This document shows, piece by piece, positions 20,273 to 22,873 of a DNA stretch of 64,000 nt. How positions within the stretch are numbered: the stretch's first letter is position 1; each line of letters begins with the position of its first letter. The translations under genes and the position numbers were made by a program. The notes beneath the pieces were generated by a model, which was given only the letters and a program-made list of their open reading frames with translations, searched no databases and had not been told where the DNA came from. The DNA lies in the IMG/VR virus record IMGVR_UViG_637000107_000010; one strand, given 5' to 3'. This DNA comes from a virus. Taxonomy: Duplodnaviria > Heunggongvirae > Uroviricota > Caudoviricetes.

Positions 20273-20343
20273 GTAAGCGTACAGCCTGAACCGTCTGGTC
20301 AGAATCTGACGAATTAGACAAAGTGGTGTCCACCAAATAAGTA

Positions 20344-20745
20344 GTGGGAACCAAAGTATCAGATATGCAGAAAAATGTGACTCCCGGCAGGCGAAAAGGC
20401 TGCCCTAATTATCCTCCCGAATTTAAACAGCAGCTCGTTGCTGCCTCCTGTGAACCCGGGATATCCATCTCAAAACTTGCTCTTGAAAATGGCATTAACG
20501 CCAATCTGTTGTTCAAATGGCGACAACAATGGCGCGAGGGAAAGCTGCTATTACCTTCTTCAGAGAGCCCCCAGCTACTTCCTGTGACTCTCGATGCAGC
20601 TGCCGAACAGCCAGAATCGCTCGCAGAGGACCCGGAAACCCTCAGTATCAGCTGTGAGGTAACGTTCCGGCACGGGACGCTCCGCTTCAATGGCAATGTC
20701 AGCGAAAAGCTCCTGACTCTGCTGATACAGGAACTGAAGCGATGA
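20344..20745 (+). CDS. tnpA: IS66 TnpA (orf1, 133 aa)
   Basis: Identical to the other two copies. Confidence 0.85.
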   Translation: MGTKVSDMQKNVTPGRRKGCPNYPPEFKQQLVAASCEPGISISKLALENGINANLLFKWRQQWREGKLLLPSSESPQLLPVTLDAAAEQPESLAEDPETLSISCEVTFRHGTLRFNGNVSEKLLTLLIQELKR

Positions 20746-21089
20746 TCCCGTTACCTTCCGGGACCAAAATTTGGCTGGTTGCCGGTATCACCGATATGAG
20801 AAATGGCTTCAACGGCCTGGCTGCGAAAGTACAAACGGCGCTGAAAGACGATCCCATGTCCGGCCATGTTTTCATTTTCCGGGGCCGCAGCGGCAGTCAG
20901 GTTAAACTGCTGTGGTCCACCGGTGACGGACTGTGCCTCCTGACCAAACGGCTGGAGCGTGGGCGCTTCGCCTGGCCGTCAGCCCGTGATGGCAAAGTGT
21001 TCCTTACGCAGGCGCAGCTGGCGATGCTGCTGGAAGGTATCGACTGGCGACAGCCTAAGCGGCTGCTGACCTCCCTGACCATGCTGTAA
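20742..21089 (+). CDS. tnpB: IS66 TnpB (orf2, 115 aa)
   Basis: Identical in all three copies; ATGA overlap with tnpA. Confidence 0.85.
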   Translation: MIPLPSGTKIWLVAGITDMRNGFNGLAAKVQTALKDDPMSGHVFIFRGRSGSQVKLLWSTGDGLCLLTKRLERGRFAWPSARDGKVFLTQAQLAMLLEGIDWRQPKRLLTSLTML

Positions 21090-21138
21090 ATCTCTTTATC
21101 CTGGTTGTCACAGAATAAGCCCGGTAAAATACGGGCTT

Positions 21139-21547
21139 ATGAACGACATCTCTTCTGACGACATCTTCCTGCTGAAACAGCGCCTGGCCGAACAGGAAGC
21201 GCTGATCCACGCCCTGCAGGAAAAGCTGAGCAACCGGGAGCGCGAAATAGACCATCTGCAGGCGCAGCTGGATAAACTCCGCCGGATGAACTTCGGCAGT
21301 CGTTCCGAAAAAGTCTCCCGCCGTATCGCACAAATGGAAGCCGATCTGAACCGGCTTCAGAAAGAGAGCGATACGCTGACTGGTAGGGTGTATGACCCGG
21401 CAGTACAGCGTCCGTTGCGTCAGACCCGCACCCGTAAGCCGTTCCCTGAATCACTACCCCGTGACGAAAAGCGACTGTTGCCTGCGGCGCCGTGCTGCCC
21501 GAACTGCGGCGGTTCACTGAGCTATCTGGGCGAGGATACCGCCGAAC
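21139..21547 (+). pseudogene. tnpC: IS66 TnpC transposase, N-terminal ~136 codons only
   Basis: Matches intact copy 3 through GEDTAE, then runs into the inverted IS629. Confidence 0.8.
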
Positions 21548-21589
21548 TGAACCGCCCCGGTTTTCCTGGAGAGTGTTTTATCTGTGAAC

Positions 21590-22480
21590 TCAGGCTGCCA
21601 GATCATCGTTTCCGATGGAAGCATAATAAGCTTTTTCTGCTTCTGCCGGAGGAGTATGGCCCAGCCTTCCCAGCAATCGTCGATTGTTATACCAGTCCAC
21701 CCACGTTAGTGTGGCCAGTTCCACTTCTGCACGGTTTTTCCAGCTCTTACGGTGTATTACCTCCGCTTTGTAAAGACCATTGATGCTCTCAGCCATCGCG
21801 TTGTCATACGAGTCGCCTGTACTCCCTGTTGATGCCAGTAATCCGGCTTCTTTTAGTCGCTCCGTATAGGCCAGTGACACATACTGAGAGCCTTTATCGC
21901 TGTGATGGATGGTGCCAGACGGACGACGGGCCCACAACGCCTGCTCCAGCGCATCCAGCACGAATGTCGTTTCCATAGACGATGAGACCCGCCACCCCAC
22001 GATGTATCCGGCAAACACATCAATGATAAACGCCACATAGACGAAGCCCTGCCATGTGCTGACGTAAGTAAAATCAGCCACCCACAGCTGGTCAGGTCGT
22101 TCTGCCACGAACTGACGGTTTACGCGGTCGCCTGCGGCAACGGCTTTCCGGCTGATGGTCGTACGGACCTTTTTACCCCGGAGAACACCGGCAAGTCCCA
22201 TAACCGCCATGAGACGTGCCACTGTACATCTGGCCACCCTGATTCCTTCCCGTAACAACTGACGCCAGACTTTACGCACACCGTACACCTGATGATTTTC
22301 ATCGTATACGCGCTGTATTTTTCTCTTCAGCCAGTCGTCGTGCTGCGCACGGGCNCTGCNTTTATCCGGATGATGTCGCTGTTGCTGACAATGGTAATAC
22401 GTTGACGGGGCAATATGCAGTTCGCTGCATACCGGTCCGACCCCGTACTGCTCACGCAGCTTATCCAGCAGTGGCATCAT
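21590..22480 (-). CDS. IS629 OrfB (transposase catalytic part, 296 aa)
   Basis: Identical to copy 2 orfB apart from N bases. Confidence 0.85.
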   Translation of the reverse strand: MMPLLDKLREQYGVGPVCSELHIAPSTYYHCQQQRHHPDKXXARAQHDDWLKRKIQRVYDENHQVYGVRKVWRQLLREGIRVARCTVARLMAVMGLAGVLRGKKVRTTISRKAVAAGDRVNRQFVAERPDQLWVADFTYVSTWQGFVYVAFIIDVFAGYIVGWRVSSSMETTFVLDALEQALWARRPSGTIHHSDKGSQYVSLAYTERLKEAGLLASTGSTGDSYDNAMAESINGLYKAEVIHRKSWKNRAEVELATLTWVDWYNNRRLLGRLGHTPPAEAEKAYYASIGNDDLAA

Positions 22481-22803
22481 TTTTTCCAGAGGCGGTCGAA
22501 CTCCGCCTTCGCAAAATAAGCGNAAGCCTGGCGAAGGATATCGTTACTGCGGCGCAGTTCACGATTTTCACGTTCCAGCTCTTTCAGACGCTGACGTTCA
22601 GCGCTGGTGAGCCCACCATCACCGCCCCCGGTATCCCGCTCATGCTGGCGAACCCAGACACGCAGAGTCTCCGGCGTACAGCCAATCTTTGGGGCAATGG
22701 AACAAATTGCCGCCCACTGTGAGTCATATTCATCCTGACTTTCCAGAACCATACGAATCGCCCGCTGACGGACTTCGGGGGAAAAACGAGTATTTTTAGT
22801 CAT
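22477..22803 (-). CDS. IS629 OrfA (108 aa)
   Basis: [32 protein letters not shown]...; overlaps orfB as expected for an IS3-family frameshift arrangement. Confidence 0.85.
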
Positions 22804-22873
22804 CCTGTTTACCTCTTTCTCAGGGAGTTTAGTCTCCAGGATTTCCGGGGCGGTTCACAGGGTAATCACGCAG

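Follow-up and report, generated by a model that had tools for sequence, protein, structure and literature searches.

The locus considered here raises the question of whether a prophage has lost its late genes through the action of insertion sequences (ISs), or whether a scar that belongs to one prophage has been written into the sequence of another. It lies in a stretch of 64,000 nucleotides (nt) of viral DNA (Caudoviricetes; IMG/VR record IMGVR_UViG_637000107_000010), hereafter the window, in which a copy of ISEc8 (IS66 family) interrupts an endolysin gene, stops within tnpC at the terminus of IS629, and is followed beyond IS629 by sequence upstream of an nleG effector gene. The ISEc8/IS629 scar is a real and already catalogued feature of Escherichia coli O157:H7 and belongs to the prophage remnant known as Sp17 in strain Sakai and CP-933Y in strain EDL933; in our assessment, it is very probable that it was placed in the prophage CP-933O by a repeat-induced misassembly of 2001. 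We directly observed the sequences of the junctions and their locations in long-read genomes, the mosaic of alleles, and the sites occupied by ambiguous bases, and these suggest that the misplacement occurred during assembly rather than in the cell.

The scar and its place in complete genomes

The endolysin gene survives as a 5' fragment of 214 of 534 nt (20059..20272, plus strand) ended by the left end of ISEc8, and its open reading frame (ORF) continues into the element up to a stop at 20289, giving an endolysin::IS fusion ORF of 76 amino acids (aa). ISEc8 is represented by its left 1275 of 2442 bp (20273..21547, plus strand), in which the left inverted repeat, GTAAGCGTACAG..., starting at 20273, is followed by tnpA, tnpB, and the start of tnpC. 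At junction J2 (21547/21548), tnpC ends after nt 409 as ...ACCGCCGAAC, where the full-length copies of the window go on AGCTGG, and a complete IS629 (IS1203; IS3 family) of 1310 bp begins (21548..22857, minus strand). At junction J3 (22857/22858), the other end of IS629 meets CAGGGTAATC, that is, nt 150 onward of a 270-nt ORF for a tail-fibre C-terminal domain; the ORF is cut after nt 149, and its last 120 nt (22858..22977, plus strand) adjoin the IS629 end.

These data confirm a first-pass annotation made from the letters of the window, which had described an IS66 copy cut by IS629 after about 410 bp of tnpC and a truncated endolysin; its coordinates were nearly base-exact, except that their end at 22873 exceeds that of IS629 by 16 nt. 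It had also correctly reported the absence of a target-site duplication: the flanks of IS629 at 21548-22857 are CCGAAC and CAGGGT, with no duplication of 3–4 bp. Target-site duplications were present at just 21 of 47 IS629 sites in the survey by Rump et al. 2011 (PMC3271280), and their absence here fits a rearrangement after insertion. The rest of tnpC together with a duplication beside IS629, which the annotation had named as evidence to the contrary, was not found; long-read EDL933 has a second, 5'-truncated IS629 at this place.

A 300-nt probe across J2 (21398..21697) gave a single match identical at 300/300 positions, and 182 complete Escherichia coli genomes contain at least 80% of the probe in one place. 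All J2 loci inspected are the remnant Sp17/CP-933Y beside ssrA, where NinG, phosphatase, antiterminator, esterase, holin, YdfR, the endolysin fragment, and the truncated ISEc8 precede IS629, and a tail-fibre remnant, nleG6-3', espW, nleG8-2, espM2, DinI, and ssrA follow it. The 76-aa fusion ORF was likewise found in the Sp17 context in 25 of the 25 contigs read. Sp17/CP-933Y, the IS629 of which is site IS.20 of Rump et al. 2011, is identical to the window in both ISEc8 junctions and in the gene order from holin to nleG; the identity over 19450-22857 is 99.8%, and over 19450-21547 the window shows one non-N difference from CP-933Y (locus L011) of CP008957, the long-read EDL933 assembly of 2014. 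Thus, the junctions endolysin(214)/ISEc8 and tnpC(409)/IS629 as well as the CP-933Y alleles are present in the window, whereas the location at ssrA and the neighbours are not: unlike in Sp17/CP-933Y, the cassette is not beside ssrA, espW, or espM2 and lies between CP-933O early genes and the nleG2-4'/nleG7 end. Since the context is not that of ssrA despite the CP-933Y junctions, we call the window chimeric.

Around J3, EDL933 departs from Sakai-type strains. Both CP008957 and CP120944 contain, in this order, holin, YdfR, the endolysin fragment, the truncated ISEc8, an IS629 copy comprising nt 224-1310, a full IS629, the 120-nt ORF remnant, nleG6-3', and espW, onward to ssrA. CP-933Y of long-read EDL933 therefore carries a tandem of 1.8 copies of IS629, a full copy and a copy starting at nt 224 (L011 22267-24662, or CP008957 3,567,266-3,569,661; L023 15971-18270), the outer end of which meets ...CACCACCTGCGTGATTACCCTG, as in the window; the 120-nt tail-fibre remnant is annotated there. 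J3 rests on direct alignment, in which window 21548-23076 and L011 23576-22049 are joined in one piece across the junction; genome counts for J3 and for the joint of the tandem merge separate pieces and say nothing about the sharing of the EDL933 structure. Comparison with complete genomes, as proposed in the first-pass annotation, hence located J2 in the 182 genomes and J3 in long-read EDL933, but at Sp17/CP-933Y and not in CP-933O. Its statement that the far side of IS629 jumps to the nleG locus holds in that a tail-fibre remnant upstream of nleG is found there; the join to nleG2-4'/nleG7 is most probably chimeric, and in long-read EDL933 the same IS629 end adjoins a paralogous remnant upstream of nleG6-3'.

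Sakai-type Sp17 has 311 bp more of tail-fibre sequence beyond IS629, with the upstream flank GTGCGCCATC, and this segment is absent in long-read EDL933. The polymerase chain reaction (PCR) for Sp17 IS.20 was negative in two ATCC EDL933 stocks (Rump et al., PMC3271280), which is explained by the fact that the forward primer maps within the 311 bp missing from long-read EDL933. The PCR result is independent wet-lab support for the long-read CP-933Y structure.

In the window, the cassette is surrounded by CP-933O. Positions 13267-19019 correspond to the early/regulatory region and esterase gene of the 1.856-Mb prophage of CP008957 (locus L006) with 99.6% identity, and positions 22857-33446 correspond to the right end of this prophage and the start of its Sp11-like neighbour with 99.84% identity. 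Downstream of the cassette lie nleG2-4'/nleG7, ISEc8, and the Sp11-like prophage, and 22857-28997 is 99.7% identical to the right end of Sakai Sp12, where nleG2-4, nleG3, and nleG7 are annotated. At the position of the cassette, the window has 2,585 bp against 22,704 bp in CP-933O of CP008957 (L006 6717-29420), which hold the rest of the endolysin gene and the antirepressor, Rz, terminase, capsid, portal, tail, tape-measure, J, Lom, and tail-fibre genes. The intact endolysin gene (L006 6503-7036) reads past the point at which ISEc8 cuts it in the window, and the 270-nt tail-fibre ORF is also intact (L006 29273-29542). Of 5,426 complete genomes, not one contains 80% or more of window 19000-24500 at a single place. 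The deletion proposed by the first-pass annotation is genuine in that the rest of ISEc8 and the distal lysis and morphogenesis genes have been lost, but from Sp17/CP-933Y and not from the prophage that surrounds the cassette in the window. The missing morphogenesis genes, which it had assigned to phage P1, are lambdoid in the intact CP008957 counterpart, where the terminase, portal, HK97-type head, tape-measure, J, and Lom genes rule out a P1 origin.

Allele mosaic and ambiguous bases at the joins

The source of the window can be identified from the catalogue of Rump et al. 2011 (PMC3271280, Table S2), which lists all IS629 copies of four O157:H7 genomes with their 10-nt flanks and coordinates. 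The IS629 at 21548-22857 is EDL933 site IS.47 (1871035-1872344), with an exact fit of the flanks GATTACCCTG and GTTCGGCGGT in IS orientation; the second copy, at 46868-48177, is site IS.26 (1896355-1897664), with the flanks ATATGCGGAT and CCCATTTCAT. The spacing of 25,320 bp between IS.47 and IS.26 in Table S2 equals the distance from 21548 to 46868 in the window. The agreement of flanks and spacing indicates that the window is about 1,849,488-1,913,487 of the 2001 EDL933 assembly (AE005174/NC_002655), and its 93 ambiguous bases fit that record as well. According to Latif et al., the old EDL933 chromosome contained 6,641 ambiguous positions, including a 4,000-N gap, and was 18.9 kb shorter than theirs; Fellner et al. 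termed the first EDL933 sequence 'inferior'. Leaving aside Ns and paralog switch sites, nearly all differences between the window and CP008957 are single-base insertions or deletions.

Judged by its alleles, the window changes template three times in 4.4 kb, among CP008957 loci at 1.86, 2.33, 3.57, and 1.885 Mb. It agrees with the 1.86-Mb locus to 18598; from 18706 and at least as far as 19470, it agrees with the 2.33-Mb locus, an Sp12-type early region; CP-933Y alleles are found from 20231 up to J3, and those of the 1.885-Mb right end begin at 22997. The first switch, from the 1.86-Mb locus (CP-933O early region) to the 2.33-Mb type, lies within 18599..18705, as the window agrees with L006 and not with L013 to 18598 and with L013 and not with L006 from 18706. 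The second, from the 2.33-Mb type to the CP-933Y type, lies within 19471..20230: the allele at 19470, in the holin gene, is specific to the 2.33-Mb locus and is neither that of CP-933Y nor that of CP-933O, and 20231 and 20247 are CP-933Y-specific single-nucleotide polymorphisms (SNPs). The third, from CP-933Y to the CP-933O right end, lies within 22858..22996, which is 139 nt identical in both loci save two N positions; over 22858-23300, the window has 1 non-N difference from CP-933O versus 4 from CP-933Y, the first at 22997. Each switch falls where both source loci are identical, and no CP-933O-specific alleles are present inside 20231-22857.

The ambiguous bases point in the same direction. 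The N at 19737 occupies a site at which CP-933Y (T) differs from the CP-933O copies (C), and the Ns at 22975 and 22978 are on sites separating CP-933Y from CP-933O. In the esterase gene, 13 of the 15 Ns fall on the 35 sites, among 1860 positions, that vary between the paralogous EDL933 copies (Fisher p = 3e-22). Such placement of Ns on paralog-discriminating sites indicates that reads of several prophages were merged into the consensus. In addition, the window IS629 shares its base at IS position 1297, at the tnpC-side end, with the truncated inner copy in the long-read tandem, so that the single IS629 of the window fits a collapse of the tandem. Breakpoints inside shared sequence and mixed-read signals on discriminating sites were thus both found, and Sanger-era repeat-induced chimeric consensus sequences likewise show switches in identical stretches, collapsed tandems, and ambiguity codes on paralog sites.

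It should be noted that flanks are also repeated in the 2001 assembly: GATTACCCTG stands beside two IS629 copies, IS.47 and IS.28 (CP-933Y), and GTACTTCTCC and CCCATTTCAT are each present twice (PMC3271280, Table S2). According to the flank table, IS.28 continues into an Sp14-type flank. Rump et al. 2011 (PMC3271280) classed IS.47 as 'backbone', for which specific primers were not designable, and did not comment on the hybrid and duplicated flanks or on a misassembly.

Assembly or rearrangement

On the reading that we prefer, the tandem IS629 would have been collapsed to one copy in the 2001 Sanger assembly, and the CP-933Y cassette (about 20231-22996) would have been spliced into CP-933O via short shared stretches, in place of 22.7 kb that hold intact genes for lysis and morphogenesis. 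Several points weigh against it. The misjoin is deduced from a consensus sequence and by comparison with other assemblies, CP008957 is the one long-read assembly in which CP-933O was seen with its late region intact here, and CP-933Y of the 2001 assembly is known solely through the flank table of Rump et al. The Ns on paralog sites show read merging and are by themselves no proof of a false join. Finally, EDL933 stocks differ by prophage-mediated rearrangement, CP120944 joining Sp12-type early genes to a different right end, and inversions and deletions have been described in EDL933 derivatives (Fellner et al.), so that a stock-specific event, although unlikely, is conceivable.

In that case, the arrangement would have existed in the isolate from which the 2001 sequence was obtained: the CP-933Y cassette would have been copied into CP-933O by gene conversion or by double recombination, using the holin-endolysin region and the tail-fibre/nleG-upstream repeat that the two prophages share, and 22.7 kb would have been deleted in that laboratory stock only. 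The homologous flanks required for this exist, recombination between prophages and large inversions occur frequently in O157 and vary among EDL933 stocks, and the neighbourhood is an IS629 hotspot in which strains F3113 and F8798 carry other IS629 junctions. We nevertheless consider a real transfer improbable, as it needs several short-patch events among four loci together with duplicated flanks: an extra patch of 1.5 kb (18706-19912 or later), taken from a third locus and lying right beside the cassette, the reduction of the tandem IS629 to one copy, and a second J3 flank that stayed at CP-933Y and is joined there to an Sp14-type flank. The Ns on discriminating sites at the joins also count against it, as do the occurrence of the arrangement in no other genome of the 5,426 and the intact CP-933O in CP008957, a long-read assembly derived from ATCC 43895. 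If a transfer did take place, it would be a laboratory-stock event and would show that a defective prophage can 'infect' an intact paralogue with its deletion.

The opposite possibility, that the long-read assemblies are wrong or come from a diverged stock and the 2001 assembly preserves the ancestral EDL933 structure, gains some ground from CP008957 itself, which was closed through an inferred large duplication and in which a block of late genes at 2.31-2.33 Mb is duplicated, poorly polished, and rich in frameshifts. We regard it as highly unlikely, because a 22.7-kb late region, once lost, is not regainable, two independent long-read EDL933 assemblies are concordant on CP-933Y, J2 lies at ssrA in 182 other genomes, and the EDL933 PCR fits the long-read structure. 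As both elements, IS629 and ISEc8, are active in O157 and present there in abundance, parallel independent events in CP-933O could also be imagined; these would have to strike the same endolysin site, the same tnpC nucleotide, and the same nucleotide of the tail-fibre ORF, and with three nucleotide-identical breakpoints, CP-933Y SNPs at 20231 and 20247, and a CP-933Y SNP within the IS, recurrence is so implausible that we give it almost no weight.

Misassembly of a real CP-933Y scar into CP-933O thus remains the preferred reading. Published work already covers ISEc8, IS629, the scar (Sp17 IS.20), and the IS.47 copy itself, as well as the poor quality of the 2001 record, and a literature search for an explicit report of a CP-933O misassembly or CP-933Y splice found none. 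The splice of CP-933Y into CP-933O in the 2001 record is a data-quality note rather than a biological discovery, and it appears not to have been described before. The region of the 2001 record (AE005174/NC_002655) around 1.867-1.913 Mb, annotated as CP-933O, is most probably a mix of CP-933O, CP-933Y, CP-933V, and CP-933M. What is read from 1.867-1.913 Mb, be it gene content, lists of IS629 sites, or 'deletions' in prophages, should not be interpreted biologically, and CP008957 should be used instead.

Proposed formation of the Sp17 scar, and neighbouring features

The order and mechanism of the IS events can be proposed from the anatomy of the scar. ISEc8 would have entered the endolysin gene of a lambdoid prophage at ssrA in the O157:H7 lineage, and IS629 would then have come to sit in tnpC. 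An IS629-bounded deletion of about 25 kb, beginning at tnpC nt 410 and extending to the 3' part of the tail-fibre gene, would have removed the remainder of ISEc8, Rz/Rz1, and the genes for packaging, head, and tail; it could have proceeded by recombination of two direct IS629 copies or by IS-adjacent deletion, leaving one IS629, and would account for the missing target duplication. IS629-associated deletions in O157 similarly show no target-site duplication, and the flanks in the window are ~25 kb apart in intact relatives. The route may have been IS-IS recombination, adjacent deletion, or the action of the IS-excision enhancer (IEE). In the EDL933 lineage, a second IS629 event would have cost the remnant the 311 bp and the resident IS629 its first 223 nt, resulting in a tandem of one full and one truncated IS629 whose outer end lies at nt 150/151 of the tail-fibre-C ORF upstream of nleG6-3'.

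WS4202 (NZ_CP012802.1, about 3,352,674-3,353,385), described as an EDL933 derivative, retains the 311-bp segment at the Sp17 IS629. Since lost sequence is not regainable, either the 311-bp loss postdates the split of the stocks or WS4202 is not a direct EDL933 derivative.

IS629-free Sp17 alleles were found in CP018241 (strain 319), CP058231, and CP044350, with the joint between ACCGCCGA and TGGCGCAC (L015 7470-7490; also L021 and L022). The truncated tnpC is here in frame with a tail-fibre fragment, giving a 188-aa ORF with LZ_Tnp_IS66 and Phage_fiber_C domains. This allele is derived, because the IS-bearing allele retains two more tnpC bases (AC). From its sequence, it looks like the loss of IS629 and 2 nt at a 2-nt GA microhomology, an IEE-like excision footprint; the GA joint fits the microhomology-mediated end joining that PMC9943667 describes for IEE, which promotes IS629 excision.

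The identification of ISEc8 and IS629 is based on long exact matches to known elements, so chance is no issue. In the truncated ISEc8, the gene order tnpA, tnpB, tnpC of the element is kept according to Pfam, with tnpC partial: tnpA (20365-20745, plus strand) matches HTH_Tnp_1, tnpB (20742-21089, plus strand) matches TnpB_IS66, and the first 409 nt of tnpC (21139-21547, plus strand) match LZ_Tnp_IS66, the catalytic part being gone. A complete ISEc8 has 2442 bp and an 8-bp target duplication; with 1275 bp and the right end absent, this copy is a dead fragment, and complete-genome annotation labels its tnpC 'IS66 family transposase, missing C-terminus'. Over 20273/20275-21547, it is 100% identical along 1273-1275 bp to both full copies of the window (25577-28025, inverted, and 57020-59461), and it likewise matches the ISEc8 copy of CP-933M in CP008957. 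The 1310-bp IS629 has the terminal repeats TGAACCGCCCCGG, orfA (22803-22477) and orfB (22480-21590), both on the minus strand, with a DDE (rve) domain and Pfam matches to HTH_Tnp_1, rve, and HTH_21; its identity to the second window copy is 99.5-99.8%.

Upstream of the scar, the lysis module comprises a class II holin gene of 68 aa (19453..19659, plus strand; Phage_holin_2_1, E = 7e-33) and a YdfR/DUF1327 gene (19664..20008, plus strand; DUF1327, E = 3e-46), and in the endolysin fragment the Phage_lysozyme match is restricted to profile positions 2-38 of 125. On the other side, the tail-fibre remnant is followed by a terminator-containing repeat unit upstream of nleG (22978..23137, plus strand), with CP-933O (Sp12-like) alleles from 22997, which is seen again at 23754-23919 with about 85% identity. 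The nleG2-4'-type NleG effector ORF of the CP-933O/Sp12 right end (23138..23632, plus strand; T3SS_NleG, E = 8e-33) lies outside the scar and provides its context.

Strains F3113 and F8798, whose IS629 copies are nearest to this site, were examined as carriers of the same junction and rejected, as their junctions differ. They have IS629 elsewhere in the tail-fibre/nleG2-4 neighbourhood (L007 11191-12786 and L008 10388-12976, respectively); one IS629 is inside the tail-fibre gene, and the other links a truncated abgT straight to the nleG locus. It appears that IS629-associated rearrangement has a hotspot at the Sp12 right end.

In the long-read assemblies, CP120944 was searched at guessed coordinates for a second intact CP-933O late region, and a different prophage-level arrangement was found: at 2,418,000-2,466,000 (L024), an Sp12-type early region and late genes are joined to a right end with nleA, nleH1-2, and nleF. 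This exchange of right ends indicates that EDL933 stocks differ by exchanges between prophages. In CP008957, at 2.311-2.328 Mb, a terminase-to-portal/tail block is duplicated (L013 24820-34570 versus 34791-41210) with many frameshifted genes, which suggests that it is imperfectly polished or imperfectly resolved.

Ambiguous bases are clustered in the window at 18022-18058, 45763-45808, and 49076-49210. The first cluster coincides base for base with paralogous esterase differences and marks a collapsed-repeat consensus, and the last is accompanied by many small insertions and deletions relative to the long-read assemblies. Extra single bases, as judged against CP008957 and, up to 28997, also against Sakai, occur at 23097, 25011, 25678, 25683, 25728, 26728, 27126, 36653, and 44050; they are likely Sanger consensus errors of the 2001 record and would frameshift ORFs of the nleG region and the second ISEc8 copy.

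Two readings of the wider window were discarded. Window 1-19004 and 27.4-46.8 kb had been considered as two tail regions, and alignment to Sakai and EDL933 assigns them to the early and regulatory parts of two lambdoid prophages. Inverting the stretch between the two IS629 copies of the window, which are in opposite orientation, restores no known arrangement.

The second half of the window is also a patchwork. Positions 44625-46867 are an N-rich esterase consensus with no good match to any single EDL933 copy, and the late region of CP-933V, the Stx1 prophage, occupies 46868-54030 in inverted orientation, poorly resolved at 49076-49210. The IS.26 copy at their border has hybrid flanks, with the Sp4/CP-933M-type left flank ATATGCGGAT and, on the right, the CP-933V head-protease site CCCATTTCAT, which is also given for IS.18; the neighbourhood of IS.26 (44625-54035) is probably another chimeric join. 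Positions 53790-64000 form a single piece with 99.9% identity to CP-933M/Sp4 (CP008957 1,271,696-1,281,696; Sakai 1,184,365-1,194,365), including the inverted lysis cassette of CP-933M and the ISEc8 copy in its small terminase gene, so CP-933M sequence appears to sit within 1.90-1.91 Mb of the 2001 record.

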